A stretch of DNA of 64,000 bases. It comes from a virus. The stretch is taken from IMG/VR virus record IMGVR_UViG_3300008954_003554, positions 1-64,000 of that record; one strand, 5' to 3'. A model generated the notes under the pieces. That model was not told the DNA's origin. It worked only from the letters and a program-made list of their open reading frames with translations, and made no database searches. The position numbers and the translations under genes are program-made. Positions 30,881 to 47,115 of the stretch are shown piece after piece (the first letter of the stretch is position 1; each line of letters starts with the position of its first letter).

Positions 30881-31039
30881 TTTCCCATCTAGCACCCAGG
30901 ATAATGCATTTCATCTAGCGCCCAATAGTTACAGACTTAAACAGGGGGGACACCCCGACTCGCCCTAACTTTCTCGTGTACATCGGGTCAGCATGTGGTA
31001 TGATATAGATATGGAGGTGCCGGTAGTTGGGAGGCAGAG

Positions 31040-31195
31040 GTGTCGAGGGATCGGATCAGGGTCAGAGTCGACCTGTTCAGGCGGATGGTCAAGGAGCAAG
31101 AGAGAATTCGGAGGGTGGCGCTGACGACGCAGGTCATCAGTCTGCTCGCGCTTGCGATCTCTGTCGGGGCGATGATCGTTGCGTACACGGGCTAA
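31040..31195 (+). CDS. Small C-terminally anchored membrane protein (51 aa, not in track)
   Basis: GGAGG SD, GTG; MSRDRIRVRV...VISLLALAISVGAMIVAYTG*. Confidence 0.55.
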   Translation: MSRDRIRVRVDLFRRMVKEQERIRRVALTTQVISLLALAISVGAMIVAYTG

Positions 31196-31204
31196 GGAGA
31201 CGAT

Positions 31205-31438
31205 GTGTTCGGTAGACGGGAGGTGGACACTGTGCTCCTGCGAGTACGAGAGTCAGAGGCCAGGTCGACCCAAAAGATCAAGGATCTCCAGGAAAGGGTC
31301 GACGCCGTTGAGGATGCCTGGGTCGACACCCTGGGGGAGATTCATCGTTGGCGCACCTGGATGACGCTTAGTGTCTTCTCTCTGGCTGTCACCTCTCTCG
31401 TCCTGTCAGGCATCTACCTCGGGGGTGTGCTTTTCTAG
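31205..31438 (+). CDS. Coiled-coil protein with C-terminal TM helix
   Basis: AAGGAG SD; KIKDLQERVDAVE then a hydrophobic tail. Confidence 0.55.
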   Translation: MFGRREVDTVLLRVRESEARSTQKIKDLQERVDAVEDAWVDTLGEIHRWRTWMTLSVFSLAVTSLVLSGIYLGGVLF

Positions 31439-31567
31439 GGGGTCGACCCGAGGAGAAAGGGGGTCGACTCTGCAGGGCAGTGGAGGTGGGGTCGACCCTG
31501 GTGTTCAGCTGGAGTCTGGCGGTCGCGATTCTCGTGTCAGCCCAGCTCTACACCCGGAGAAAACGAC

Positions 31568-31774
31568 GTGAGGAGGAGAAGGCGAGGAAAAAAAGAGTTC
31601 GACGTTGGTGAGCTAGTGACGTGGAGCTGGGGAGGCAAGAAGGCGAATATCTTCCACGGACTCGTGATTGACAAGCGGGACCACATGGGTATCTGGGTCT
31701 ACACGGTCATGTTTGAGAATCAGATTGTCAGTGGCTTCAATCCCGAGGAGCTGCGTCGGCTCAAGATCTTGTAA
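31568..31774 (+). CDS. Small KOW/SH3-like protein
   Basis: FDVGELV...GLVI...YTVMF...EL. Confidence 0.55.
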   Translation: MRRRRRGKKEFDVGELVTWSWGGKKANIFHGLVIDKRDHMGIWVYTVMFENQIVSGFNPEELRRLKIL

Positions 31775-31814
31775 ATCTCAAAATCCTGAGGTATAATAGA
31801 GACAGGAGGCATAC

Positions 31815-32138
31815 ATGGCTAAGTACAAGCTAACCGCGGCCCAAAAGCGTGACATCAAGAAACAGGTGGGTGTCGCTAGGTCGAATGGAGCATCGCTTCC
31901 CCGGCAGAAGAAGACCTGGTCTTTCAAGAAGGGAGACCTGGTGACCCTAAATAAGAAAGGCATGCGCCAGCAGGGGTTGACAGAACCTCCCTGGGGTGTG
32001 GTCGCGGGACCCTACCACGAGGGGTCGAATAACGGGGGCTACTTCAGGGTGATGACCAGCACAGGCATGCAGGATTGGCACGGTGGTCAGATGGACAGGA
32101 TTCAGGAACTTGACAAGGAAGACGCTGAAGACGTGTAG
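31815..32138 (+). CDS. KOW/SH3-like protein with basic N-terminus
   Basis: FKKGDLVTL...GVV; own promoter and SD. Confidence 0.55.
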   Translation: MAKYKLTAAQKRDIKKQVGVARSNGASLPRQKKTWSFKKGDLVTLNKKGMRQQGLTEPPWGVVAGPYHEGSNNGGYFRVMTSTGMQDWHGGQMDRIQELDKEDAEDV

Positions 32139-32203
32139 CAGCCGCCTACTTATGGTATAATAGAAACACAGGACAACAATAAACCCAAACCCCGAGGAAA
32201 CTC

Positions 32204-33259
32204 ATGGATATCAAGACCTTCGCATCCACCGTTCGCGCCCTTCCGGCCGACGTCTCCGTTCTTATTCGAGGCCCACACGGGATCGGTAAGTCCCACCTCG
32301 CCGAGAAAGCGGCTGAGGACATAGGGCTGCCCCTCATCGACCGGCGTCTCTCGCAGATGTCCGAAGGTGACCTGGTCGGGTTGCCGGAACTGGTGGACGG
32401 TGTCACCCGCTTCTGCCCTCCGGACTGGTACGCTCGGGCTTGCCGCGAACCGGTGGTTCTCCTCCTGGACGAAATCAACCGGGCGACCCCGGAGCTCCAG
32501 CAGGGAGCCTTCCAGATCGTTCTGGCCCGGGAGCTTAACGGCCACAAGCTGCACCCCGACACCCGCGTCATCGCGGCAGTCAATGCCTCGGCAGAATACC
32601 AGGTGAACGAGATGGATCCGGCTCTGCTGGACCGATTCTGGGTTGTGGACCTGGACCCCACCACCGATGATTGGATCGAGTGGGCATCTGGCCCTGGAGA
32701 TATTGACTCGGTCATCGTGGACTTCATTCGCCACAATCCGGCTCACCTTCGATTCAAGGGACAGGCGGAGCCGGATAAGATCTACCCCTCTCCTCGGTCC
32801 TACGACCGGTTGAACCACACCTTGCAGCACGCCTCGATGGCACCTTCCGAGGTGGCTGGAGACGTCAAGTCGAACGTTGGATTCTACGCCATCTCTCACG
32901 GCTTCCTCGGTACCGAGGCTGCTATCGCCTTCCGGGACTTCGTTGATAACTACGAACTCCAGGTATCTCCGGAGGACGTGCTGAATGACTACAAGAAGAA
33001 CAAGAAGTCTCTTGAGGCGCTCACCAATGATCAGGGGAATGGTCTGATCGCCAAGGTGGTTGACCACTGCAAGCAGAACAGCTGGACGGTGGATCAGTGC
33101 TCCAACCTCTCCAAGTGGGCTAAGACCCTGCCTGGTGAGATGATGGTGAGTCTCTGGAACGGTGTGATGGAGACCAAGGAGGTCAAGAACATCACCAAGC
33201 TCCACAAGTTCCTGGGTCAGTCTGTTGTTGAAGCAGTTCAGCGGTCACGCAGTCTGTAG
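32204..33259 (+). CDS. MoxR-like AAA+ ATPase
   Basis: Walker A GPHGIGKS, DLVGLP, Walker B LLLDEINRA, AAVN, MDPALLDRF, PSPRS. Confidence 0.9.
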   Translation: MDIKTFASTVRALPADVSVLIRGPHGIGKSHLAEKAAEDIGLPLIDRRLSQMSEGDLVGLPELVDGVTRFCPPDWYARACREPVVLLLDEINRATPELQQGAFQIVLARELNGHKLHPDTRVIAAVNASAEYQVNEMDPALLDRFWVVDLDPTTDDWIEWASGPGDIDSVIVDFIRHNPAHLRFKGQAEPDKIYPSPRSYDRLNHTLQHASMAPSEVAGDVKSNVGFYAISHGFLGTEAAIAFRDFVDNYELQVSPEDVLNDYKKNKKSLEALTNDQGNGLIAKVVDHCKQNSWTVDQCSNLSKWAKTLPGEMMVSLWNGVMETKEVKNITKLHKFLGQSVVEAVQRSRSL

Positions 33260-33322
33260 TTGTCCTGCCCCCTCCCGTGTAGCACACACGGGAGGGTGGT
33301 ATAATATAGTCAGGAGGTACTA

Positions 33323-34621
33323 ATGGAACCCATGGAACAGAAAGATCAAGGCACCGCGACCGAGCTTCCGAGCAAGCTGGAAGCCACTGATGAACAGGTG
33401 TCTCGATTCAAGCTCGATGATCATCTCGTCAACCTCATGTTGCACGAGCCTTTCTTCAGTCAGGTGATGGTTAAGCTCAACAAGTCAGAGACCAGCGCGG
33501 TGCCGACAGCAGGCGTCATGGTGAAGGACTGTGTCCCTCACTTCGTCTGGAACCCTCGATTCGTAGCAGCACTCTCGGCACTCAAGGTGCGAGGGCTTCT
33601 CAAGCACGAGTGCTACCATCTCATCTTCAATCACTGCACCCAGCGTCGACAGGAGCCACACCGTGTGTGGAACTTCGCCACCGACCTGGCCATCAACTCA
33701 ATCATTCCTCGCAAGGAGCTGCCAGACGGTGGTCTCTTCCCGGGTGAGGCACTCGACCTAAGCGGGATCACAGATCCCGAGCGGTTGAAGAAGTGGCAGA
33801 AGGTATCAGACCTGATCGCCTCGTTTCCTACCGAGAAGTCAGCTGATTGGTACTTCACCGAGCTGATGAAGGACCCTGAGATCTCTGAGACCATCGAGCC
33901 GGAGCCCGGTGAGGGTGAGCCCGGTGGGATGGACGATCACGAAGGCTGGGGTGACATGTCTGATGAGGAACGTCAGGTGGTCGAAGGCCGCATCAAGCAG
34001 GCACTGGCAGAGGCAACTCGACGCTGTGATGGTAACGGGCAGTGGGGATCGGTCCCTAGCTCCGTCCAATCTCGAATCCGTCAGATGGTAAGTAACGAGG
34101 TGGACTGGAAGTCGCTTCTCAGGAACTTCTGTGGTCGGACACAAAGGGCTCACCGAAGCTCGACCATGAAGAGAATCAACCGGAAGTATCCGTACATTCA
34201 CCCTGGTCGGAAGCGAGGTCACAGCGCTCACCTGGCCATCTACCTCGATCAGTCCGGTTCGGTTGCTGACGATGATATCGCCCTGCTGTTTGGTGAGCTC
34301 AACAACCTGGGCCGGATGGTTGAGTTCACGCTCATCCCGTTCGACTCCACTGTGGACACAGAGAACGAGATGAAGTGGCGACGCGGTGCCAAGGTCCCAC
34401 CCCAGCGCTGGCGGTCAGGAGGTACCTGCTTCGATGCTGTGGCTAAGCACGCTGTCGAGAATAAGCACCGATTTGACGGCTACATCGTCCTCACTGACGG
34501 TGAGTGCTCTGATCCCGGGCCATCAAAGATGCGACGGGCCTGGGTGATCGTTCCAGATCGGAAGCTCTACTTCAAGCCACACCCCAAGGATATGCTCATC
34601 AATATGAAGCGTAGCGTGTAG
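33323..34621 (+). CDS. DUF2201-type metallopeptidase plus vWA-like protein, partner of the AAA ATPase
   Basis: TAGV, LKHECYH (HExxH), WN.ATD.AIN, DDH..W, LDQSGSV, GGT.F, VLTDG. Confidence 0.85.
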   Translation: MEPMEQKDQGTATELPSKLEATDEQVSRFKLDDHLVNLMLHEPFFSQVMVKLNKSETSAVPTAGVMVKDCVPHFVWNPRFVAALSALKVRGLLKHECYHLIFNHCTQRRQEPHRVWNFATDLAINSIIPRKELPDGGLFPGEALDLSGITDPERLKKWQKVSDLIASFPTEKSADWYFTELMKDPEISETIEPEPGEGEPGGMDDHEGWGDMSDEERQVVEGRIKQALAEATRRCDGNGQWGSVPSSVQSRIRQMVSNEVDWKSLLRNFCGRTQRAHRSSTMKRINRKYPYIHPGRKRGHSAHLAIYLDQSGSVADDDIALLFGELNNLGRMVEFTLIPFDSTVDTENEMKWRRGAKVPPQRWRSGGTCFDAVAKHAVENKHRFDGYIVLTDGECSDPGPSKMRRAWVIVPDRKLYFKPHPKDMLINMKRSV

Positions 34622-34666
34622 CACGCGCCAGGCGGTGGTATAATAGAAACACCCAAGGAGGATAAC

Positions 34667-35365
34667 ATGGAAGACAGTCGCAGAGACGCCATCATTGACG
34701 ATCTACTCAAACTCAGACCTGAAGGTCTACCCACAGAGAAAGTTGAGTACGAGGAGTACACGGAGTTCTGTTACCAGGCATACAAGGACAAGACACGATA
34801 TCGTTGTACTCACCCAAACTGGGGATACGACATCGACACGCTGTTCAGCCTGGGTCTCCGTACTCGAAACGAGCTGGAGGAATACGTCGCTAAGCGCTTC
34901 TATGAGGTTGAACATTCCAGCAGGCTCAAGAAAGGAAAGAAGTCCGGCCACAGCCGGAAGGTCAATCGACTCTGGTCTCGAATTGATTCCGCTGTCACCC
35001 AGGTCCAAGACGAAGGTCGACCAGGGATCTACACTCTCACCAAGAGGTGGGGGTCAGCAGTCCTCGCCTCAGTGTGGGCTACGGACCATGATGAAGCTCG
35101 AACAATGGGAGAGATGTTCTACGGTCATGTCCTCAATGAGGAAGACGGACTTCGGACTCGCTTTGTGAGAATCGGTTCACCCGAAGAGGTGATTCCAGTT
35201 AACGTCGAGGCGGTAACTAGTTTGAGAGAAGACATCGATAGCTGTCAGAGTCGCATCAAGAGACTACAGAATCAGATCGACCAGGCAAAGGCACGTATCG
35301 GGGCCATTCAGATGATGCAGTCTCACATTCTGGGAAGCTGTGCCTCCCGTGCAGAAGAAGGCTAG
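34667..35365 (+). CDS. Hypothetical protein with C-terminal coiled coil
   Basis: Own promoter, GGAGG SD. Confidence 0.6.
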   Translation: MEDSRRDAIIDDLLKLRPEGLPTEKVEYEEYTEFCYQAYKDKTRYRCTHPNWGYDIDTLFSLGLRTRNELEEYVAKRFYEVEHSSRLKKGKKSGHSRKVNRLWSRIDSAVTQVQDEGRPGIYTLTKRWGSAVLASVWATDHDEARTMGEMFYGHVLNEEDGLRTRFVRIGSPEEVIPVNVEAVTSLREDIDSCQSRIKRLQNQIDQAKARIGAIQMMQSHILGSCASRAEEG

Positions 35366-35419
35366 TGGTGGTATAATAAGAAGGTAAGCTAAAACAAACC
35401 CAAATCCATCGAGGAAACA

Positions 35420-36166
35420 ATGAAGCTTAAAGTCAATCACAGTGTCTCACGAGGCACAAACATCCTGAATGTGGATGTCCCAGATCAACTTCGAAAGAGG
35501 ATTCCTACCGGACTTCCTCACATTGATGATGCACTGGGAGGCAGGGGATTTACCCCGTCCATGGTTACTCTCTTCACCGGAACACCTGGTGCGGGTAAGA
35601 CCACACTCATGCTCGAAGCAGCCAATGCTTTGCAGGGAAAGGGTGCCACAGTTCTCTTCAATACCGCTGAGGAATCTCTCTTTCAGCTCAAGATGACAGT
35701 TGAGCGACTGGGTCTCCGTCACGGTTTTGTGGCAGGACAGGATACCATGGTCAAGAACTTGCTGGAGCACGCTGATGAGCTTCGCGCTAGCAATCCGAAC
35801 AAGCCCTTCTTCCTCATCGTGGACTCTCTGCAGTGCCTCAATGATGGTAAGTACGGTAACCACCAGACCAACAGCAAGACAGCTCAGCGGTCGTTGTCGA
35901 TGATTACGGATTATTGTAAGAAGCACTTCTGCAATGCTGTTATCATTGGGCAGGTCACCAAGTCAGGTGCTATGGCAGGAGCAAACGTCCTGAAGCACAT
36001 GGTTGATGCTTACATCACTCTTGATGTGGAGCGCAAGGATCAGGATCTGCTCGGTTGTCGGGTACTCGCCACTGAGAAGAATCGGTTCGGCGGTGCTGGT
36101 CACATCTTCTTCCTCGCTCTGAGGGAATCTGGTTTTATGGAGGTATCACGGGTTTCGGTGGGTTAA
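35420..36166 (+). CDS. RadA/Sms-like RecA-fold ATPase (ATPase domain only)
   Basis: TG...D.ALGG.G, GTPGAGKTT, AEES, IVDSLQ, GQVTKSG..AG...LKHMVD, KNRFG. Confidence 0.85.
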   Translation: MKLKVNHSVSRGTNILNVDVPDQLRKRIPTGLPHIDDALGGRGFTPSMVTLFTGTPGAGKTTLMLEAANALQGKGATVLFNTAEESLFQLKMTVERLGLRHGFVAGQDTMVKNLLEHADELRASNPNKPFFLIVDSLQCLNDGKYGNHQTNSKTAQRSLSMITDYCKKHFCNAVIIGQVTKSGAMAGANVLKHMVDAYITLDVERKDQDLLGCRVLATEKNRFGGAGHIFFLALRESGFMEVSRVSVG

Positions 36167-36253
36167 CCGCCGAACCTGCCGGCCGGGTGTGATACCTCTA
36201 CCTCATGGGTTGCCCGGCCGGCACCCCCTCCCACACGTCTAAGGAGAGCCAAA

Positions 36254-36460
36254 ATGACAGTCGGTGACATGGTACGAATCAAAGGCAACTTTCAGGTGCA
36301 GCATGGCGCTGCCCTCGGTGAAGTCTGGCCCGAGGTTTACGGCCAGATCGGTGTGATCGTTGGCTTGGCCAAGCGACTCTATATTCCCGCAGCCAAAGTC
36401 ATGGTACTGGGTGAGGTCGCTGAGTTCGACCTCGATGAACTGGAGAAAGTAAATGACTGA
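36254..36460 (+). CDS. Small KOW/SH3-like protein
   Basis: MTVGDMVRI...IGVIV...ELEKV. Confidence 0.6.
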   Translation: MTVGDMVRIKGNFQVQHGAALGEVWPEVYGQIGVIVGLAKRLYIPAAKVMVLGEVAEFDLDELEKVND

Positions 36461-36597
36461 CAAAGAGATTATTCGTGAAGCATACTTCGCACTGGCCGGC
36501 TATCGAAGCCCGACACTAACAAGACAGCAGCGGGAGAATGAACTACAGAGATGTTATACACTTCTTGCGGACGCTCTGTATAGACGGGATGAGGAAG

Positions 36598-37112
36598 ATG
36601 AAAGTAGGTGACCTGGTAAAGTATAAAGGTTCAGTCGGAATTGTTCTTGGGCCTTGCACAAAGCGCTGGGCTAAGCCCGCTGATGTTTGGGTACTTTGGC
36701 CTCATAAGCACAGGCCCATGATCGAGAGCAGCGACTTTATGGAGTTAGTAAATGCAAGTCGGTGACCTGGTATCATTGAAGATGAAGAAGACACAACCCC
36801 CTCAGGTACCTTGCCATGGCATCGTACTCAATCTATGGCGGAATCATAAGGGACGGCTTGTTGAAGTAGAGGTGATGTGGTCAGAAGGTAATGTTAGAAG
36901 GTTCCGTGCTGATCTCTTCGAGGTGATCAATGGAAGTAGGTGATATTGTTCATGATCATGCTGTTGGTCGCAATGGCATCATCCTATCTAAGACGGTGTG
37001 TGCGTGGAAAGTTAACTGGTTCTATGTCTTTTACGGCGACGGCTCCATCGAGCAGGCACGTGCCAATGAGCTAAGCATACTTTCTTGTAAAGCGCTCAGA
37101 AATGATGTATAA
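36598..37112 (+). repeat. Second mini-array of three MxVGD genes (36598-36765, 36752-36943, 36930-37112) with the same 14-nt overlap
   Basis: Junctions ATGCAAGTCGGTGA and ATGGAAGTAGGTGA. Confidence 0.75.
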
Positions 37113-37136
37113 TATAATCACCAAGGAGGAATATTC

Positions 37137-37544
37137 ATGTCAGTTCAGTTAGCAAATATTCAACACGACGGCGGCACTCACGATGTGTCTGTGGAAACAG
37201 AGGGTGATCAGTGTGTCATCAAGTTTGGCGGCAGCTTCACGCTCCGCGTGGATGAGGCAAATCTAAATAAGCTGCGTGAGATGATTCACATCGCGGCTCG
37301 TGACTTGACCATTGAGCGACGTGATACTGCCGGTGCTCGGGAGTGGTCGGAGTCGGGGTTAGACGACGTGTTTGACTTTGATGAGAGCGATGAGATCTCG
37401 GGTGAAGACCTGAAGGCGGCTGATGAGATCTGGCAATCGAGCGTTGAAGCTGACATGATCCAGCGTGGGATCGACGCGCGCGAGATGATGAAGGGAACAG
37501 CTAGCGCTGGAGACTGGAACCCGAACGATCCATCCAACTGGTAG
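37137..37544 (+). CDS. Acidic hypothetical protein
   Basis: Own promoter at 37085, AAGGAGG SD. Confidence 0.6.
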   Translation: MSVQLANIQHDGGTHDVSVETEGDQCVIKFGGSFTLRVDEANLNKLREMIHIAARDLTIERRDTAGAREWSESGLDDVFDFDESDEISGEDLKAADEIWQSSVEADMIQRGIDAREMMKGTASAGDWNPNDPSNW

Positions 37545-37550
37545 GTAGAT

Positions 37551-37760
37551 ATGTTACAAATTCCATGGACAGTCGTGTTTGCGAAAGAGAGACAATCATT
37601 TACGCACCCCTCAGAGTACGTTGCGAAGGAGCTCTACGGGTCGATAGAGCAGAAAGCTATGCTCGAACAGGCCAATCAGTATGCGACACATGTCGGCTAT
37701 GCGTCGGTTGTCTGCATCATCAAGGGGAGCCATGCTGGAGGATTCTATGCAAATCGGTGA
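37551..37760 (+). CDS. Hypothetical protein
   Basis: 14-nt overlap with the downstream MQIGD gene. Confidence 0.5.
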   Translation: MLQIPWTVVFAKERQSFTHPSEYVAKELYGSIEQKAMLEQANQYATHVGYASVVCIIKGSHAGGFYANR

Positions 37761-37920
37761 CATTGTTAGGTATAAGAACGAGAACACACCCTTTGGGACG
37801 ATTGTTTGGATCATGCCCAAGGAAGAGAGAAAGGATAATGTTCTTGTGATGTGGAGCAAGAATAGGAAGTGGTTTGTGTGGCCTGAGAACATCGAGGTAG
37901 TAAATGAACGTGCAGCTTAG
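37747..37920 (+). CDS. Small KOW/SH3-like protein
   Basis: MQIGDIVRY...GTIV...VLVMW...IEVVNE. Confidence 0.6.
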   Translation: MQIGDIVRYKNENTPFGTIVWIMPKEERKDNVLVMWSKNRKWFVWPENIEVVNERAA

Positions 37921-38150
37921 TAAAGAAGAGTATGATACAATGATTGAGGCACTTGCACTCTATTCTAGCACCCATCACAAGGAGTTCCTAGATAACCAGG
38001 TCTACGCCGGAGTAGAGAGCAAAGGGTGTAGGGATCGATGGCTGAATTCACATAAGCTCATTGAAAAGCTTGAAATGATTGAAGGTCAGAATACGTAACA
38101 ACGTGCAGCTCTTGCGCTTTGTTGGTATAATAGATTCAAGGAGGCAAACC

Positions 38151-38933
38151 ATGCCACGCAAATCTCACGATCTTCGTCTTAGTCAGGCTGTTGAGCTTCT
38201 TCAGGCCTATGAGGCAGCTGACCATCAAGGGACCGAGGTCTCTTTCGTCAGGGACATGATTGCCCGCATGGGGCGTCGGAAGCAGATGTCTCCCAAGCAG
38301 AGGGGCTGGCTTGATTCACTCATCGAGCAGGGGGTTCCAGCTCCCAAGGGGGACTCAAAGCTTATTGATGAGATCGAGCGCCTGCTCAAAGTTCCCGGCG
38401 CTGATCACGTTCATCAGCCGCTGCGAGACTTTCTCTTCCGAGAAAAGAAGGGTTGGACACTTTCTCCCAAGCAGATCGCCTTTCGAGACAGGCTGATAGA
38501 TGAAGCCAGAGTCATCGAGCGCGACGGTCCTTGGTTCCCATCGAGCGAGCAAGCAGAAAAGCTCAGAAGCTGTGCAGCTATGTCTCCGAGCCGCAGCGGG
38601 ATGTACTGGTCCACGCACCCAGGCGAGGAGCGAGCGCTTAAGAAGGTTTTGTCGTGGCTAGAGGGCTGTGATAAGTTTGTAGACTCGTGGTCTGTAGACA
38701 AGGTGCTTCACAGCTTCAGGAGCGGATTGAAAGAGATGGAGGCACCTTACGCTTCCGCCGGTGATATCGTCTGGGGGAATCACGGAAAGTATTACGGAAA
38801 GATGGCTCTTGTTACCGGTGGTCCTGCCATCGCTGAGAACGGCCGTATCGGATACCCGGTCTTGATCGACGGGGTATCAACAACCTTCTCGAAAGGGATG
38901 ATCACCAAGCGCCGACCGAAGGCAAGGGAGTAA
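38151..38933 (+). CDS. Hypothetical protein with repeated S(P)KQ helices and C-terminal SH3-like domain
   Basis: Promoter at 38103, AAGGAGG SD; MSPKQ, LSPKQ; AGDIVW. Confidence 0.6.
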   Translation: MPRKSHDLRLSQAVELLQAYEAADHQGTEVSFVRDMIARMGRRKQMSPKQRGWLDSLIEQGVPAPKGDSKLIDEIERLLKVPGADHVHQPLRDFLFREKKGWTLSPKQIAFRDRLIDEARVIERDGPWFPSSEQAEKLRSCAAMSPSRSGMYWSTHPGEERALKKVLSWLEGCDKFVDSWSVDKVLHSFRSGLKEMEAPYASAGDIVWGNHGKYYGKMALVTGGPAIAENGRIGYPVLIDGVSTTFSKGMITKRRPKARE

Positions 38934-39303
38934 CCATGGGTGATACGATTAAGTCAGGGAAGTGCAGACTGTGCACGGGTCAAGGTCTCGGAGTTCAGAT
39001 GGTCGACACACGTGGTCAACCAGCTGTGTTCCACTGCAAGCAGTGCGAGCCCGTCTACTTCCACCGTCTATCGATGCTTGACAAGGAGAGGTTTCTCAAA
39101 GGTGCAGGTGTAGAGTGACATTTGATCTAGGCTTCTGGCTAAGTGGCGGGTTCTTCTTCTCTCTCGGCATGTTCATTGGGATTTGGGCTGAGCATCGAGC
39201 CCGAGAATATTATGAACGGAAGGGAAAGGAGTAGTCCCCGGACACCCTCTCTCATGTAAACTTGGGTAGTCTGTGGTATAATATTATCACCAAGGAGGTC
39301 CAG

Positions 39304-39588
39304 ATGGATTTGAATGTTGATGTGATCGATAACGAGACCGGTGAGATTTACCGGGAGGGCGTGCTGCTTGCGAGTGCGCATATCTTTATTGCCAAAGAGA
39401 ATGGTAATATTGTCCGGGACGAAGTGAACACCGTTCACCTTGATGAGATTGATGGCGGCGGCGAGATAAAAGTCCGTGATATCTATGTCGATTTTCCGGA
39501 AGAGAGAAGGAAGAGAGATTTGTCAGCTGAGGCAATAATCAAGGCCAGGGAGTTCTGGCAGTATGAGAATGGCGGGGGTCAGGTATGA
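39304..39588 (+). CDS. Hypothetical early protein
   Basis: Promoter at 39254, AAGGAGG SD. Confidence 0.55.
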   Translation: MDLNVDVIDNETGEIYREGVLLASAHIFIAKENGNIVRDEVNTVHLDEIDGGGEIKVRDIYVDFPEERRKRDLSAEAIIKAREFWQYENGGGQV

Positions 39589-39833
39589 ATATCTATACAT
39601 TTGTAATCGGTAGCGCTGACGACTTCGAGGGAATCGAAGATTTGACGGACTATGTGGACCAGGAGGGTTGCGACGGCGGTTTGAACTACAGCTGCCATGA
39701 GTTCGCAGTACATCCGGAGTGTGACGAGGAGACAGTGACCCTGATCGGTCGTGGTATCGCGTTCAGTAACGACTGGTGCATGGACCACACTTTCAGTTTC
39801 CTCGTCCGCGGGGAGATTTCCCCTGTAGTCTGA
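39585..39833 (+). CDS. Acidic hypothetical protein
   Basis: ATGA overlap. Confidence 0.5.
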   Translation: MNIYTFVIGSADDFEGIEDLTDYVDQEGCDGGLNYSCHEFAVHPECDEETVTLIGRGIAFSNDWCMDHTFSFLVRGEISPVV

Positions 39834-39875
39834 AGTGTGTGGTGGTATAATATAATCACCAAGCAAGGAGATGCA

Positions 39876-40106
39876 ATGCCTATTCAAGAACTAGACGAAA
39901 TGGAAAAGCTACTCGATGAAACTGCAGACTGCTTCGAGGACACTATGAAGCAGCTGTTCGATGAGGATCCCGGGATGTTCGAGGGTCGGTCTACCCAGGC
40001 AAGCTGGTCAGCTCAGGTAAGTTTTGCTGGCGATGAGCTTCGCAAGGAACTCAACAAGGTTATCGAGCAGATAGAGATTCGACTACACGATGGACAGTTC
40101 GCATAA
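39876..40106 (+). CDS. Acidic helical hypothetical protein
   Basis: Promoter at 39823, AAGGAG SD. Confidence 0.55.
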   Translation: MPIQELDEMEKLLDETADCFEDTMKQLFDEDPGMFEGRSTQASWSAQVSFAGDELRKELNKVIEQIEIRLHDGQFA

Positions 40107-40573
40107 TGTGGAGGGTCGAAGCTATATTCTGGATTCTATCCGGACTTGCGGTTGGATGGCTCGTGCTGGGTGTTCCAGCACACTAGGGGATGATTGTTAT
40201 GTTAAGTCAAATGTGGTTATGGACAGCGACAGTGAGGCTCCCAAACGGAGATGCTCCTGCTACAGTGATCGCTCCCGATCAGTGGACAGCGCGACGAATG
40301 ATTGAAGCGCAGTTCGGGAAGGGATCGATTCTTGGTGACTACGTCGAGTGCGTAAAGGCTGTCGGATGATGGAGCGAGGGGACCAGGTCCTTGTAACTCA
40401 GGGAACTTATCGCGAGTGCACTGGGCAGGTTGTATTTCTTGATCATGTTGACAGCCTTGCCACCATTGCCCTCGACCAGCACAGCATGCTGCTGAAGATA
40501 AGTATTGCTAGTCTTGAGCTAGTCACGTGTAAATCCAGGGCTGGTAAGGTATAATATATCCAGGAGGCGACAC

Positions 40574-40735
40574 ATGCCCAAGAAGAAGCAGAAGAAGCAA
40601 TTCACCAGCAAGGCCCAGGAGCGTCGTGCTCGTAACTGGCTCGCTGTCCACGCGTTTCAGCGGAGCGGTGCTGGTCGGCATACTGATAAGAAGAAGAAGG
40701 CCAGCAAGCAGGCGTGCCGAGGGAGCCATCAGTGA
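40574..40735 (+). CDS. Very basic 53-aa protein (not in track)
   Basis: Promoter at 40527, AGGAGG SD; MPKKKQKK...RNWLAVHAFQRSGAGRHTDKKKKASK. Confidence 0.6.
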   Translation: MPKKKQKKQFTSKAQERRARNWLAVHAFQRSGAGRHTDKKKKASKQACRGSHQ

Positions 40736-41427
40736 TGGAGTCAGCTGTTGCTATCGTGTTCTTCATACTCTGGACAGTCTTGATTATCCTAGTCTTGAAC
40801 CCAGAGTTATTCATCCGGCTCAGGTACCGTATCGACATCGATGATGTGGATGATCAGTCTGACAAGCCTGATCTAGCGCCGGAGAAAGATGAACCAAAGC
40901 TAGATCGTTACGTGTAAAGCGCCCATAAGTTTTGTATAATGTACCCAGGAGGTAATACCATGACCGAGCTTGAAGAAGCACAGATGAGAGCAGCCGAGTT
41001 CACGAACTCATTGGCATGCTTGTATCACATTCAACAACTGCTTGCTGTGGGAGAGGAGGCTAAGGGAAGTATCCGAGACAGGACACTGCCTGATCCGGTT
41101 CGCAAGCAGGCAATTCAGGATCTTCGCCACGTCAATCTACAATTCAATGTGGTCGCTGCTGCGCGCGCTGTGTTGGGAATCTCAGCTTAGGAGAAGAATC
41201 ATGACAACTGCAGAGATCATTGCTAACTACAAGGCCATGCAGGAGATGAAGCCTCATAGCTCCATCCTCCGCGAAGTGCGCATCCAGTATGCCGACATGG
41301 CAGAGGGTGGCGACGGGGGGACCTTGGGTTACGCCCCTGACGGTTTCAATCGCCCACCAACCTGTCGTGAGTACAACTACCCTGGCAAACCGGACTCTTT
41401 CTTCCAGGAAGTCAGACAGGCTCTGGG

Positions 41428-41724
41428 ATGGCAATGAGCGAATCCAATATTGTCTACCTTGATGACCACAGACAAATTAATCCCATCCTGGGTCGAGGCG
41501 ACCTGGTCCGAATTGTCTCTCCGGAGATAGATGGGATTGTTGTGGGGGTGACAGCTGTCATGGGACCCGATTCAGACGCACCAGGTCAGGCAGCGTCTGT
41601 TGATGTTGCTGTTCCTTACGACGAAGAATGGGTGATTCATGAGGACGTCCCAGTCCAGGAATTGCATCGAGTTATCAACAAGGAGTATCAGGTGTCGAGG
41701 ATGATAGACACAGAGGAGGGATAG
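41428..41724 (+). CDS. KOW/SH3-like protein
   Basis: LGRGDLVRI...GIVV...VDV. Confidence 0.5.
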   Translation: MAMSESNIVYLDDHRQINPILGRGDLVRIVSPEIDGIVVGVTAVMGPDSDAPGQAASVDVAVPYDEEWVIHEDVPVQELHRVINKEYQVSRMIDTEEG

Positions 41725-41840
41725 AAAAAAGAATTGTGACCTACGTGTCGACTTCGTGTAGCACTGAGGGTGTGATGGTATAATATTATCATGGAGGGGA
41801 TGGATCCCTCCTCTCAACCCCAAAACCCCCGAGGTTAATC

Positions 41841-42200
41841 ATGGCTATCACCGCTAACTCCCGCTACCTGTTCGAAATCCTCAGCTCCGACGAGCTGGCT
41901 GCTCACCCGAAGTCCGGTCTCAAGACCGTCGTGGTCTCCGGGACCTGCACCAACGCTGACGGCGTCAGCTTTGACTTTATCGCTACCAACAACTTGGACC
42001 AGCGGTACCCCGACCGGTTCAAGGTGAACTGGAACGGAAAGGCAGCTCGGATGCCTAAGGTCGTCGGCTTCGGTATCGCGGAAGACGTCCGCACCGATCG
42101 CAAGGTGACTGAGGACCTCTACTTCACCCGCGGCGCTCGCATCGCAATCGCTCGGAAGTGCAAGTCGCTCTTCCCGCTTTGGAAGCAGGCGTCAAGCTAG
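41841..42200 (+). CDS. Hypothetical early protein with strongly GC3-biased codons
   Basis: Promoter at 41756, A/C-rich leader, GAGG SD. Confidence 0.6.
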   Translation: MAITANSRYLFEILSSDELAAHPKSGLKTVVVSGTCTNADGVSFDFIATNNLDQRYPDRFKVNWNGKAARMPKVVGFGIAEDVRTDRKVTEDLYFTRGARIAIARKCKSLFPLWKQASS

Positions 42201-42323
42201 GACACTGGCTGGGACTTCCGGTTGTTCGGCACCGTAACGGTTCTGATGACTTGACCGGCACTCCCAGCCTCACCTGGCTGTCCCGATGTACAATCGGGGC
42301 GGTCCTCTTTATAATGTTCACAT

Positions 42324-42400
42324 GCGCCCTTAGCTCAGTTGGATAGAGCATTGGCCTTCTAAGCCAAGGGTCGTAGGTTCGAATCCTACAGGGCGTACCA
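42324..42400 (+). tRNA. tRNA-Arg (anticodon UCU) with encoded CCA
   Basis: Acceptor GCGCCCT/AGGGCGT-A-CCA, D arm GCTC..GAGC, anticodon arm TTGGC-CTTCTAA-GCCAA, T loop GGTTCGAATCC. Confidence 0.96.
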
Positions 42401-42444
42401 TTTAGTTCTCGTGTAAAACAAGCAGAGTTGAGGTATAATAAAGA

Positions 42445-43185
42445 GGTAAGGAACAAGGAGCACTGTTCGCACCGGTTGCACGCCCTAGTGAGTAAGGATC
42501 TTCGTAAGGGGACCGCTCCAGGTGGTATCAAAGATGCAATGTCGTCTGGAGTCGAAAGACCTAAGCTCCGCTTCCCTTACTGATCTTTAACATTCTAATC
42601 CCCCAGGTCCGAAAGGAGGAGCTCAAAGAGGCACCGGACGGTCCAGCCAGTTATTGGTGTTCTGGGGGATTTATTTGAGGCCTTGGATTTAGCGGTCCGA
42701 GGAGCCGGTGGGAGTCGGCAGTCGTGGAACGAAGAGCTCACGGTGAGTGACATATTGGTAGTCACAAGAGGTCCGGGGTGCTGAGAGGTGTGTGCACCAA
42801 CCGCACATCGCGCAACAACTAAACGGACTCCCACCCCCTCTACCCTTTATGTGGGGGACACAGACCAGAGTGGTTGCCGATACTAGTTGTGGCAACTCGT
42901 GGTTGCGTAAGCGTGGTCAGGATTTCTGACTTTACAGGCTGTGTCTAGATAGAGAAGTTGGGAACTCTATCACCATCTCCGCGGCTGGCGGTAAAATGGG
43001 AGCGAAGTCAGACACGTCCATCCAGTCCTACCCGGCACCCGCCTGGGGAAACTGACAGCGGGTATATTTTAATAGAGGAGATTTGGGAAGAGCGAGGGTC
43101 TCTTCCAAGGTTAACAAAAGGCGGGACGCTGCTGAAAGTGATGATAACAATCCCAGCTCGGGGGAACATTCCGGCCTTCACTAAC
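42445..43185 (+). ncRNA. Large (~740 nt) structured non-coding RNA candidate, GOLLD/ROOL-like
   Basis: Own promoter at 42411-42439, no credible ORF, more than 15 helices including two perfect 10-bp stems, GNRA tetraloops and long-range pairings; directly follows the tRNA. Confidence 0.75.
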
Positions 43186-43209
43186 CCTACATTTAAGGAG
43201 ACTCAGAGG

Positions 43210-43401
43210 ATGAGGTCAGGTGACATTGTTAGGAATCGAAACTCAGAGAGCGGAGAGATGGGTGTCTTCATGGGCATGACAGTGTTCAAGAACCAGACGA
43301 ACAACGAGCTCTATGAGTGTGCCGAGGTTTACTGGCCGGAGAGAAGGAAGGTGGGGACGATTCAGACTAGCCTAGTGGAGGTGATCAGTGCAGGTCGGTG
43401 A
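43210..43401 (+). CDS. Small KOW/SH3-like protein
   Basis: AAGGAG SD, MRSGDIVRN...VYW...VEVISAGR. Confidence 0.65.
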   Translation: MRSGDIVRNRNSESGEMGVFMGMTVFKNQTNNELYECAEVYWPERRKVGTIQTSLVEVISAGR

Positions 43402-43564
43402 TCTGGTAGGTCACATCAGCGGAGACGGCCCCACCGGCATTGTTCTGGCCACATGGGCGGATGTTCAACCCGGTATTGGCATCGAGGAAACATGGTGTGA
43501 GATCCTCTGGGGCTGCGGTGAGATCTGGGAATATGCCGAGAAAGATCTCGAGAGGGTTCAGTGA
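43388..43564 (+). CDS. Small KOW/SH3-like protein (not in track)
   Basis: 14-nt overlap GTGCAGGTCGGTGA; MQVGDLV...GIVL...EILW...DLERV. Confidence 0.65.
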   Translation: MQVGDLVGHISGDGPTGIVLATWADVQPGIGIEETWCEILWGCGEIWEYAEKDLERVQ

Positions 43565-43620
43565 TTCGTGCATGTAACAGCAAGACAGCTGTGGTATAAT
43601 AGAAGCACCAAGGAGATATT

Positions 43621-43845
43621 ATGACAGAGGAAGAGAAACGAGCGCTGGTTGAGAGGTACGAGTGTGATTCATCGATTGCGTATGACGTCACAGACGATGA
43701 GCTGGATGTTTTGCTCCTAACGCTGGGAGAGATGGAGCCTATCGTCGACGCGATCAATGTTCGCTGCGGTGCAAGCATCGAACAGCGAGCAGCGGATATC
43801 GGGTGTGATCCGGAAGACTTTGCTTATGAGATCCAGGGATTTTAG
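43621..43845 (+). CDS. Acidic hypothetical early protein
   Basis: Promoter at 43572, AAGGAG SD. Confidence 0.55.
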   Translation: MTEEEKRALVERYECDSSIAYDVTDDELDVLLLTLGEMEPIVDAINVRCGASIEQRAADIGCDPEDFAYEIQGF

Positions 43846-45735
43846 CATGTAATCATATCCTAGCTGTGGTATAATGAGAACACAACGGGAGGTTGTCATG
43901 AGAACTGGAACTTTGAAAGATAGGTATAACAACTACGTGAGCGCGATGATTAGCATGGGTCTTCCCTACGTTGACTTCGACACCTGGCTCAATCGATAGG
44001 ACTGCGTGTAACCCACGAGCTGCCGTGGTATAATGGTATCACCTAAGGAGGTACAATGAAGTACACAATCAAGAAGTTCAATGGCGACGATCAATACAGC
44101 TGGGCGGTCTTTCGCGCGGCAGACGTGAAGGGGATGCGGAGTCCGATCTTTTACGGTGATGCTGAGCCGATCATCAATGGTCTGGACCGCAGTGAGGCAC
44201 GGTACCACAGAGATCGACTGGAGAAGATCGCATGAAGTATTACTGTAGATTCTGCGGCGTCAAGTCGCACAACCCACACTGGGTGCAGGGTATGTGCCCT
44301 CGATGCGGAGCAAGAACACCCCCGAAGGAATGGTGATGATAATCTATGCACTGTTTATAGGTGGTGGGCTCTGGTTTACTATCGCTGCATTCATGAACAT
44401 CGTGCAGCACTCGTAGCCCTGTGGTATAATAGAATCACCAACCAAGGAGGCCCACATGGCAACAACAGCAAATGCCAACCGAGCCGCCCACAAGAAGTGC
44501 GCGGGAAGCGGATACCCTGTAGCCTTGTTCCTTCTACGGCTGGGTCACACCAAAAACCCTTGCGGCCACTGCGGCCGGAAAGTAAGGATTCTCAAGAACG
44601 GCCGGATGGCGTCTCATCGGGCGTAGCTACCCAAACGAAAGACATAAGGGAGAAACCAAAATGACCAAGACCCAGACCAGCCAGAAGCCCTACGTCAGTC
44701 AAACCGGCAGCAAGTACCATGTGCTCAACAGCCGGGGCAAAGTTGCGGCGACGTTCACCAGCATCTCACTTTCGGCGTGAATAATGGCGACTAGAACTTC
44801 AAAGCTCAAGGCAATCATCCCGGGAAACTGGGGTTACCAGAAGGTTGAGATATACTTTGGCCAGGTGCGGGTGACTAGCTGTCAGCAGTGGGTGATGGCC
44901 GGTGAACTGATGCAGCACATAGAAGGTGGATCGGTGTGGGAGTTTAGGTATCGTGAGGGAGATGTGCTGCGCGGATATCCTGTAAAGCATCACCGGTGAT
45001 GGTATAATACATACACCAACCAAGGAGGCCCACAGTGGCTATCAGAACTTTCAATTGTCGCTTTAACTCACTGACCACACATACAAAAAAGACGTTCCAC
45101 GTCCATGTGAAGTGGTGGGCATTTGACGATGATCGGCTCAATGCCCGGGGACCGGCGAGGCTGAATGAGGCCAACGTTGAGGTCCGGGCAGGAGATGCCG
45201 CGAAAGCCAGGGCACTGGTTGTCCGTGAGTGGAACGGTGTATCATCGTTCATCGGCCAGGCCGAAGAGGTGGCAGTATGAAGTACTACTGCCCAACTTGC
45301 GGATATGCAACAATTCACAGACTGTGGCATCGGTGCCCAGCTTGTGGTTCTAGTCATCAACCGAAGGAGGTGGCAAGTGAAGCTATTCCTGTGGAAGCTT
45401 AGTCAAGACGTCAACAATGATTACGACACGTACAGCGATGCTGTTGTGGTGTCGAGCAACCCAGTCGCAGCTAAGAGGATCCATCCGAGCGTCGATAGCC
45501 AGACAGGTGAGATGATGTTCCGGTGGGTCGAGGGAGAAGGTTGGCGCTGGACCCATGACGGAGAGCGCTATAGCAATGGCTGCTGGGCTGACCCGAAGGA
45601 CATTCAGGTCACATGTGTCGGTGAGGCAGCTGACTGGTTAGGTGAGGGTGCAGTGGTTTGTCGGTCCTTTCATGCTGGGTGACGTGCAATTCTCACATCC
45701 CCGTGGTATAATATAGAAGTAATCAAGGAGATTCC

Positions 45736-46191
45736 ATGAACTTCACCGCTCGCGAAAACAGCCTCCTCTCCAACACCGACGTCCTGGGTTACATCCAGGC
45801 GAAGAACGCCGAGCGCGACGCGCAGGCGAAGGCCGAGGGCTGGGAGTTCTGGACACTGATGCCTGAAGGTAATCTGTTCGTGGCGGAGTTCGCCAACGTC
45901 TATGAGCTGGAGATGCGCTACGCTCGCGGCACCTACAGCGACGTGTACAAGGAGTGGTGCGGCATCCGCCCGTCCATCCCGCAGGGTCTGACCCTGACTC
46001 AGCTGGAGGCAGAGATCGAGCAGCTGTCCGAGATGGCAGCTGAGTCCCACAAGGCGGACCTTGAGTGGCAGGCCGAGATGGACCGCCAGGATCGTGAGGC
46101 TATCGCGATGGGTCTGGCTGAGCCGACCGAGGAGACAGAGTTGGAGCAGTGGGAAATCTATGAGGCGAAAGCCGAAGCGGAGGGATACTAA
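45736..46191 (+). CDS. Acidic hypothetical early protein
   Basis: Promoter at 45684, SD; YSDVYKEWCGIRP motif; high GC3. Confidence 0.65.
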   Translation: MNFTARENSLLSNTDVLGYIQAKNAERDAQAKAEGWEFWTLMPEGNLFVAEFANVYELEMRYARGTYSDVYKEWCGIRPSIPQGLTLTQLEAEIEQLSEMAAESHKADLEWQAEMDRQDREAIAMGLAEPTEETELEQWEIYEAKAEAEGY

Positions 46192-46548
46192 GATGGAGGA
46201 ATCTATGCATCGTATTTATGTTGCCTGGGAGGGAGGTTACTTTGTTACCTCTCTTAACAACTCGAACTTTCATGCCGACCTTCAAGAGATGGTTGCAGAT
46301 CTAGGACCACCTACTACGGTGGAGTTTCGGCATACGGACGAAGGTTGGTATGTAGAACCAGAGGAAGAGGAGAAGTCGTGACCAAGTATCAAGTACACTA
46401 TGAGAAGGCAACCTGCAAAGGTATCAAGCGTGGCATACGCACAGTCAAGGCTCGCAATGAGGCTGAGGCTAAGCTGAAGGTGGCCTCTGTGGTTGATGGA
46501 AGCTTTGGTCACTGGGTTAACCGGCTCGCAAACGAGGCGCTATAAATA

Positions 46549-46911
46549 ATGAAAAGAACTAGACGCGATACGGTCAGGAGACTCTACAGGGAAGCGATCC
46601 TTGAGTACTTCGGGGAGTCAGACCACCTAAGGGAGGCAGTAAAGAGAGATGTGCACTGCGCTAACAAGGCTCCAGGGGAGTGGGTAGGTGCTCACGGTGT
46701 CCTAGAGATCTACTGTGAGGGAGGGATCCCGAATGCTTCAGATATAATCGAGCCAGGCTGGTACGGCCTCGAAGGCCCTACACACTATAACAGCGACACC
46801 TGGGCCAAGGTAGATGACTGGGTGAATCTGGGACTAGCTGCTCTCGGCAAGACAGATCGTGTCCACCACGAGCCCTGGAACAGTGCAGTGATCGGGGTCT
46901 ACTGGTCCTAA
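46549..46911 (+). CDS. Hypothetical protein, last gene of the early island
   Basis: ORF ends just before the GGGCCC-rich tract. Confidence 0.55.
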   Translation: MKRTRRDTVRRLYREAILEYFGESDHLREAVKRDVHCANKAPGEWVGAHGVLEIYCEGGIPNASDIIEPGWYGLEGPTHYNSDTWAKVDDWVNLGLAALGKTDRVHHEPWNSAVIGVYWS

Positions 46912-46919
46912 CATCCTAG

Positions 46920-47115
46920 ACCCAGGGACCCAGGGCCCTTCTACAGGGCCTTCATACAGGGCCCTATTTCTGTGCATCTAGCTCGGATAGGGGCCTAGGG
47001 CCCCCCTCAAAAAAGGGCTAAAAAGAGCCCTATAGAGCCCCAGGGGGTAGGGGCCCCCCAGGGCCCCCGGCAGGCTCAGTGGGCCCTCTGGGGCCTCCTG
47101 GAGGGGGCTAAGGCT
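46920..47115. repeat. Non-coding tract dense in GGGCCC/RGGCY palindromes
   Basis: GGGCCC at 46933, 46959, 46998, 47051, 47061, 47081 plus GAGCCC/GGGCT/GGGCCT variants. Confidence 0.7.

Follow-up and report, generated by a model that had tools for sequence, protein, structure and literature searches.

Phage tRNA islands repeatedly hold conserved RNAs of unexplained purpose. RNA C and RNA D of phage T4 have been unexplained since the 1970s, and cage formation by the giant RNAs GOLLD and ROOL was demonstrated only recently. The T4 arrangement, in which tRNA-Arg is followed by rnaD (RNA D, 119 nt) and then by rnaC (RNA C, 139 nt) at distances of 1–6 nt, is the closest analogue of the locus described here, and the function of the two T4 RNAs is still unknown (PMC9697503). 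GOLLD and ROOL occur in the neighbourhood of phage tRNA islands; the 5' region of GOLLD is variable and its linker sometimes holds tRNAs, and ROOL is a phage and prophage RNA with many pseudoknots and kissing loops and no known protein partner (bioRxiv 10.1101/2024.12.08.627333). Y RNA-like RNAs are small structured RNAs that can adjoin tRNAs in phages (PMC4201824). The present locus lies in a 64-kb stretch of viral DNA (the window), the first 64 kb of the 83-kb IMG/VR virus record IMGVR_UViG_3300008954_003554, for which CheckV gives a completeness of 23%. A gap without genes behind a tRNA-Arg(UCU) gene holds a string of structured RNA modules there, and two of these, RNA-A and RNA-B, form families that covariation supports and Rfam lacks.

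A first-pass annotation, made from the letters of the window alone, had read the gap as a single ornate non-coding RNA of ~740 nt with its own promoter. A structured RNA on the + strand is borne out for the first ~530 nt of the gap (42447–42975), the only conserved part; the last ~230 nt are unconserved, and comparison with relatives indicates that the conserved part is four separately conserved modules, a leader (L), M3, RNA-A and RNA-B, and not one 740-nt RNA. The modules and the elements directly ahead of them are as follows.

42324–42400, + strand: tRNA-Arg(UCU), found by ARAGORN and by the Rfam tRNA model (74 bits)
42411–42439, + strand: putative array promoter, GTGTAA, 17-nt spacer, TATAAT, from the sequence and its conservation in relatives
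42447–42576, + strand: leader L, alignment A5 of 12 sequences
42596–42672, + strand: M3, with closing helix 42597–606/42662–671 and a GAAA hairpin inside
42677–42841, + strand: RNA-A, ~165 nt, alignment A4 of 19 sequences
42851–42975, + strand: RNA-B, ~125 nt, alignment A6 of 34 distinct sequences

The gap itself (42401–43209, 810 nt) runs from the 3' end of tRNA-Arg to the ATG at 43210. No plausible gene was found in it, in agreement with the earlier view of the locus as non-coding. Each of the six frames carries 8–14 stop codons of all three kinds, so that no single stop reassignment opens a frame, and another genetic code for the gap was rejected on the same ground.

RNA-B folds into a four-helix junction (P1–P4) followed by a hairpin, P5. 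The module begins with an invariant 5' GUGGG; P1 pairs 42856–63 with 42939–46, P2 (42864–67/42900–03) carries a variable extension, P3 (42905–12) is capped by GUAA, P4 pairs 42915–20 with 42926–31, and P5 (42948–54/42965–71) presents the conserved loop AAGUUGGGAAC. In the alignment of 34 sequences 98.0% of cells are paired and 16 of the 24 pairs show double changes, a level reached by none of 500 shuffles, with slid controls at 28–48% paired. Three single strands of RNA-B are near-invariant, namely the 5' GUGGGGG, GUGGUUGCGUAAGCGUGG and the P5 loop. The RNA-B model, R1, scores 116 bits in the window. In five loci (L005, L013, L015, L016 and L036; L followed by a number is our label for a locus) the P2 extension contains a duplicated 14-nt word, GCAUUGUUGUCAAG, flanking a small hairpin. 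RNA-A is built from an outer helix (GAGG/CCUC), an invariant hairpin at 42681–42702, a long helix (42707–16/42826–35) and two internal hairpins. Its alignment of 19 sequences has 97.8% of cells paired and double changes at 15 of 44 pairs; again 0 of 500 shuffles were as high, and slid controls were 40–50% paired. A candidate kissing loop between UUGGUG and CACCAA consists of five invariant pairs and one with a compensatory change. The RNA-A model, R2, scores 205 bits in the window.

The leader, present as a single copy within the window, folds into a three-way junction with P1 at 42457–61/42565–69 and a GNRA-capped P3 at 42550–62. Its junction strands ACUGYUCGC and CGUCUGG are conserved, and an insert of ~65 nt in P2 (about 42474–42540) is common to the window and L060 only. 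Compensatory changes occur at 13 of its 23 pairs (A5, 12 sequences). An L-like three-way-junction element is also found at L002 2265–2364, directly before a protein gene (GTG 2365), with a GTGGTATAAT promoter upstream and a CCUCC stretch opposite the AAGGAGG Shine-Dalgarno (SD) sequence, and the L fold may thus serve as an mRNA leader as well. M3 keeps the same position in five relatives only (L049/L061, L054, L067 and L070), at 78–83% identity. None of its 25 pairs shows changes on both sides in the five sequences aligned; the M3 sequences are nearly invariant, which makes covariation uninformative for this module.

The strand of the RNA follows from its G-U pairs. RNA-A has invariant U-G pairs and RNA-B has G-U in 20 of 34 sequences at one pair, and such frequent G-U pairing points to the + strand as the RNA, as had been proposed. 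An advantage over shuffled sequences did not appear for the whole 741 nt, whose minimum free energy corresponds to z = +0.17 on the + strand and z = −1.53 on the − strand; RNA-A and RNA-B alone each give a modest z of −1.5. Single-sequence folds of the window RNA-A and RNA-B match the comparative structures. With folding energies this near those of shuffles, the evidence for structure is the covariation and not thermodynamics. Nine of the helices that the first-pass annotation had read by eye, and all three of its GNRA hairpins (42551, 42608 and 42905), agree with the comparative structures. Among them, 42597–606/42662–671 is the closing helix of M3, conserved and with no covariation; 42681–687/42696–702, 42707–716/42826–835 and 42747–751/42761–765 recur in RNA-A; and 42857–863/42939–945, 42873–878/42891–896 and 42948–954/42965–971 recur in RNA-B. 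Three helices drawn in the leader (42494–500/42582–588, 42504–512/42572–580 and 42516–522/42545–551) clash with P1 and with P3 (~42551–60) of the leader fold, and are doubtful also because they are built on the insert absent from most relatives. The two long-range pairings that had been suggested, 42837–842/43073–078 and 42925–932/43005–012, share bases with conserved local helices and extend into the 3' part, which is not conserved, and are not retained.

Comparison with Rfam 15 places the modules outside the described families. At the gathering score tRNA is the only match in the window, and a search of 42200–43450 at E ≤ 10 returned no GOLLD, ROOL, OLE, HEARO, RNase P, tmRNA or group I/II intron; the suggestion of a divergent GOLLD finds no match at either threshold. 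Eleven related loci gave tRNAs and chance-level matches only, consistent with the alternative suggestion that no described family is involved. ARAGORN found no tmRNA within the window. Resemblances to RNase P, 5S RNA, hammerhead, HDV and hatchet RNAs noticed by eye had no model support and were dropped. A Y RNA-like identity is excluded, as no model match and no Ro60 gene is found: YrlA (RF02553) does not match RNA-A or RNA-B, its sole weak match (25 bits versus a gathering score of 69) falls on tRNAs in L044, and the Ro60/TROVE gene is absent from five related phage records. A literature search for the conserved words found no paper that contains them, and a prior listing is possible in the IMG/VR catalogue of 8,495 candidate RNAs (PMC10690425, Fremin et al. 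2023). Within the reach of Rfam 15 and the searchable literature, RNA-A, RNA-B and L count as new families.

The relatives of the locus are marine viral and metagenome contigs. The first of them (L002, the same as L004), reached via the upstream protein, retains the middle of the gap alone, in a different gene order and with its own promoter. The RNA-A and RNA-B sets were gathered by exact seed words of 18–22 nt; an RNA-B 18-mer retrieved 21 viral contigs and an independent 5' seed 8 more, and a 22-mer from the RNA-A hairpin (42683–42704) retrieved 22 marine metagenome contigs. Seen through the independent 5' seed, the RNA-B 18-mer varies at 1–2 positions only, and near-invariant blocks of 18–22 nt extend across phages that are strongly diverged elsewhere. 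RNA-A precedes RNA-B in the window, L010, L050, L056, L060 and others, the order is reversed in L059, L063 and L064, and ~120 extra nt separate the two in L042. RNA-A stands without RNA-B in six loci (L052, L053, L055, L065, L068 and L070), and about 20 have RNA-B but none of RNA-A, L and M3 (listed as L005–L020, L041, L044, L045 and L047, with L010 itself counted under the RNA-A to RNA-B order). The modules are shuffled among phages, in a mosaic arrangement. A further candidate structured RNA lies at about L058 3195–3290 (in the orientation with RNA-A on the + strand), with a 13-bp closing helix GUCGGUGGGUCAG / CUGACCCACCGAC; within it, AAGUUGGGUA is similar to the P5 loop of RNA-B.

The recurrent layout of the array is tRNA-Arg(UCU), promoter, L, RNA-A, RNA-B, tRNA-Lys(UUU) and further tRNAs. 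tRNA-Arg(UCU) precedes the array in the window and in L008, L041, L042, L047, L050, L060, L064 and L065, and in the window it ends 45 nt upstream of the predicted start of the array transcript. Spacing to the tRNAs is tight elsewhere, with the 5' end of a tRNA 4–6 nt past P5 in L010, L042, L050, L056 and L060 and the 3' end of tRNA-Arg 1–3 nt ahead of RNA-B in L041 and L047. The GTGTAA-N17-TATAAT element at 42411–42439 is present as annotated. Its hexamers are conserved in relatives, TGTAAA-like and TATAAT-like boxes being kept in position in L042, L050, L055, L060 and L064 with a spacer that varies, and the promoters of other relatives have the form TGnTATAAT; judged from these motifs, the element would drive the RNA array. 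In L015 and L036 stand-alone RNA-B is preceded by a promoter of its own, and a U-run follows P5 in most stand-alone copies. In 12 loci a U-tract after RNA-B is followed by a fresh promoter for an unrelated gene, and the proteins downstream there are not homologous to one another. These fresh promoters and non-homologous downstream genes argue against a cis-regulatory role. Upstream of RNA-B in L012, by ~70 nt, there is a weak match to the marine-phage manA-II motif (811–949, 26 bits versus a gathering score of 100).

As far as searched, RNA-A and RNA-B are confined to uncultured marine phages with a T4-type (Gp23) capsid gene. Related phage records measure 190–293 kb, a Gp23-type major capsid gene (PF07068) is found in four related genomes, and each of five phage records, of which three reach a completeness of 90% or more, contains RNA-B exactly once. 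A complete 293-kb phage genome (G002, the contig of L010) has two adjacent Gp23-type major capsid paralogs, with open frames of 640 and 631 aa, at 176.5–180.1 kb. Searched by blastn against 50,697 phage records, the region and RNA-B yielded tRNA matches only, or nothing. The nearest cultured phages by capsid protein, at 37–48% identity, are Flavobacterium phage immuto, Microcystis phage Mel-JY01 and Rhodothermus phage RM378; model R1 finds no RNA-B in these three or in two uncultured megaphages. Among 185,579 species genomes the RNA-B 18-mer is present in 15 contigs, three of which are true family members, and these three contigs of metagenome-assembled genomes are probably phage. In three seawater metatranscriptome contig sets one contig was placed, on the tRNA only and from a different tRNA gene, which says nothing on expression.

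The remaining features of the region lie on either side of the array.

42287–42315, + strand: promoter-like site of tRNA-Arg(UCU) itself, from the promoter scan
42976–43209, + strand: 3' part of the gap, including the SD sequence and 5' untranslated region of the next gene
43037–43072, + strand: terminator-like hairpin (CCCGC...GCGGG) with a U-rich tail, UAUAUUUU
43210–43401, + strand: next gene, an open reading frame (ORF) for a 63-aa protein, with ATG 43210 behind an AAGGAG SD sequence

The 3' part shows no folding signal (z = +0.66) and has almost no homologs, except for a 56-nt block in L058/L062. Neither 42975–43215 nor 42401–42690 has a match in five related contigs, and a 22-mer from 42985–43006 matches no viral contig. 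That 22-mer belongs to a segment, 42971–43055, with a weak Rfam ZMP-ZTP match (17.9 bits versus a gathering score of 39, E = 3.3). As a ZTP riboswitch (RF01750) the segment stays below the gathering threshold, with P1 mostly mispaired and the P2 hairpin down to 3 nt. The GGCGG/CCGCC pseudoknot strands are present within 42971–43072, and the hairpin with UAUAUUUU shares sequence with the 3' strand, as in a ZTP ON-switch, in a match that is itself weak. No purine or folate gene lies downstream; the next gene encodes the 63-aa protein of no family. The 56-nt block, 43081–43136, is 86% identical to L058 3299–3354 (also L062), where it occupies a different position. It contains the hairpin 43086–92/43100–06, and a frame starting at TTG 43083 (ATG in L058) would encode a peptide that is similar in the two, G-ARV-S-VNKRRDAAE; the block could be a tiny ORF or another RNA module.

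The 63-aa protein has no Pfam or PHROG match, and none of the neighbouring small proteins matches a Pfam or PHROG family. The RNA locus falls within a part of the window, 31000–47000, with a G+C content of 50–59% and flanks of 33–46%, which holds many short genes with TGnTATAAT-type promoters. A 78-aa protein encoded at 41201–41437, with a GGDGG motif and likewise of no Pfam or PHROG family, has homologs 0.1–0.7 kb from RNA-B in L005, L008, L013, L014, L015, L016 and L036; this proximity could be synteny, or the protein a possible partner. The same virus record carries a full-length tmRNA at bases 67752–68120 (L083 3752–4120), outside the window and ~25 kb downstream of the array. It scores 109 bits with Rfam, and the tag peptide given by ARAGORN, ANNNYHFESVRLAA, might hint at the host. 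A tmRNA, a tRNA and the RNA array in one genome indicate that the phage invests in translation-related RNAs.

The explanation that we favour, with a probability of roughly 0.7, is a string of small structured RNAs, separately conserved and folding independently, that follow a promoter, are processed together with tRNAs and act in trans. The array either lies within a phage tRNA operon or descends from one. Its primary transcript would be a precursor of the tRNA-operon type, cut by the host enzymes that mature tRNAs, with RNase P acting at the downstream tRNA and 3'-trailer nucleases at the upstream one, and RNase E would probably cut the conserved AU-rich linkers GAUCUUUUACAAUUU and CUACACUUUAU. 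The products would be discrete stable RNAs of ~125 and ~165 nt, in a process resembling the origin of T4 RNA D and RNA C beside tRNA-Arg. The mature RNAs would then work in trans through a specific partner, a protein or an RNA, tied to translation or tRNA biology in the course of takeover. The near-invariant single strands of RNA-B suggest such action through partner binding, and stable trans-acting RNAs matured with tRNAs are our best guess. In the window the array appears to have lost its downstream tRNAs, and it probably ends at the terminator-like hairpin near 43037–43072. Several points weigh against this explanation. The picture relies on inference for the use of the promoter, the places of processing and the stability of the RNAs, and the invariance of the seed words is partly a selection effect of collecting by exact words. 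No tRNA follows the array in the window, so RNase P cannot set the 3' end there. The contiguous order L–M3–RNA-A–RNA-B with short conserved linkers, seen in several phages, would suit one multi-domain RNA just as well. Neither a partner protein nor a target came to light, with no Ro60/TROVE gene in the five records, and complements of the conserved loops and single strands of RNA-B are not enriched within the window.

A multi-domain RNA would make L, M3, RNA-A and RNA-B the domains of one large ornate molecule of ~530–630 nt, extending from the promoter to ~43072, which works as a unit, possibly in RNA-only assemblies like those of GOLLD and ROOL, and whose domain content varies by phage. We regard this as unlikely, and extend the same doubt to a version in which the modules would be permutable, partly dispensable domains of a third large ornate phage RNA class beside GOLLD and ROOL, co-transcribed with tRNAs, whose conserved loops (UUGGUG/CACCAA, GNRA and AAGUUGGGAAC) make intermolecular contacts that build an RNA-only assembly or a scaffold for tRNA or ribosome. 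The single promoter, the short conserved linkers with no terminator between modules, the elaborate folding, GNRA loops included, and a candidate kissing loop that might just as well join two molecules all suit a large RNA, as do the tRNA-island setting shared with GOLLD and ROOL and the variable 5' region and occasional linker tRNAs of GOLLD. However, most phages have RNA-B without RNA-A, L and M3 and with its own promoter and terminator, and RNA-A is found without RNA-B. The order is reversed in three loci and interrupted by 120 nt in L042, tRNAs abut the modules within 1–6 nt, and no covarying contact between modules is seen.

The modules might instead be cis-regulatory leaders (a riboswitch, an attenuator or a protein-binding operator) in which P5 and the U-tract form a regulated terminator. 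The U-run after P5 in most stand-alone copies, a gene start 18–30 nt downstream in L004, L008, L009 and L012, the L-like element with its CCUCC opposite the SD sequence in L002 and the weak ZTP-like match in the 3' part all lend themselves to that reading, but it is improbable given downstream genes that are unrelated to one another, a new promoter between RNA-B and the next gene in 12 loci, a tRNA as the next gene in many loci, and one copy of RNA-B per genome; conservation of the P5 loop sequence is also unexpected for a plain expression platform. Position within tRNA arrays, variable module content and the tRNA loss in the window would be in keeping with modules that have no function of their own, as spacers or folding insulators that aid the maturation or stability of tRNA-operon transcripts or as decaying remnants. 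Such a passive role is very unlikely for elements that keep near-invariant blocks of 18–22 nt across otherwise divergent phages, that preserve five helices by compensatory changes, and that include an RNA-B kept as a stand-alone gene far from any tRNA. That the conserved part is not RNA at all, but protein-coding in another genetic code or an element acting at the DNA level, is scarcely credible: stops of all three kinds occupy every frame, indels among homologs are not divisible by three, P2 ranges from 31 to 117 nt in length, and the G-U pairs are strand-specific.

The small processed RNAs that we favour belong to an already-known kind, the unexplained structured RNAs of phage tRNA islands, and what the result amounts to at present is a well-founded new RNA family, not a new mechanism. 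The locus adds at least two, and probably four, defined RNA families with strong covariation to these islands. Two of them, RNA-A and RNA-B, are new and well supported, and their carriers are marine T4-type jumbo phages known only from uncultured sources. They occur once per complete genome in this abundant lineage, and their lengths of 165 and 125 nt put them within direct reach of biochemical and structural work. Their distribution shows the RNAs of a tRNA island to be modular and shuffled among phages. Like GOLLD (RF01998), the array is phage-encoded, lies near tRNA genes, has an intricate covariation-supported fold and varies in domain content. In contrast to GOLLD, which exceeds 800 nt in contiguous domains, its units measure 125 and 165 nt and occur alone or in either order, and the GOLLD covariance model, with its conserved 3' domain, gives no match even at E ≤ 10. 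ROOL (RF03087) differs similarly, with no Rfam match here; the modules are much smaller and independent, and they occur in marine uncultured phages with other hosts. T4 itself offers small non-tRNA RNAs directly behind tRNA-Arg in a phage with a Gp23-type capsid, as here. The T4 rnaC and rnaD sequences have no visible similarity to RNA-A and RNA-B, their sizes and folds differ, and R1 and R2 find no match (E ≤ 1) in the T4 tRNA region (L048), so that homology to the T4 RNAs is not established, although position and phage type agree. Unlike in T4, a promoter and a structured leader separate tRNA-Arg from the RNAs, and RNA-B can in addition form a gene by itself, equipped with promoter and terminator. 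Should the agreement in position with T4 stem from a common role, the RNA-A and RNA-B families would provide a comparative handle on the old question of RNA C and RNA D.

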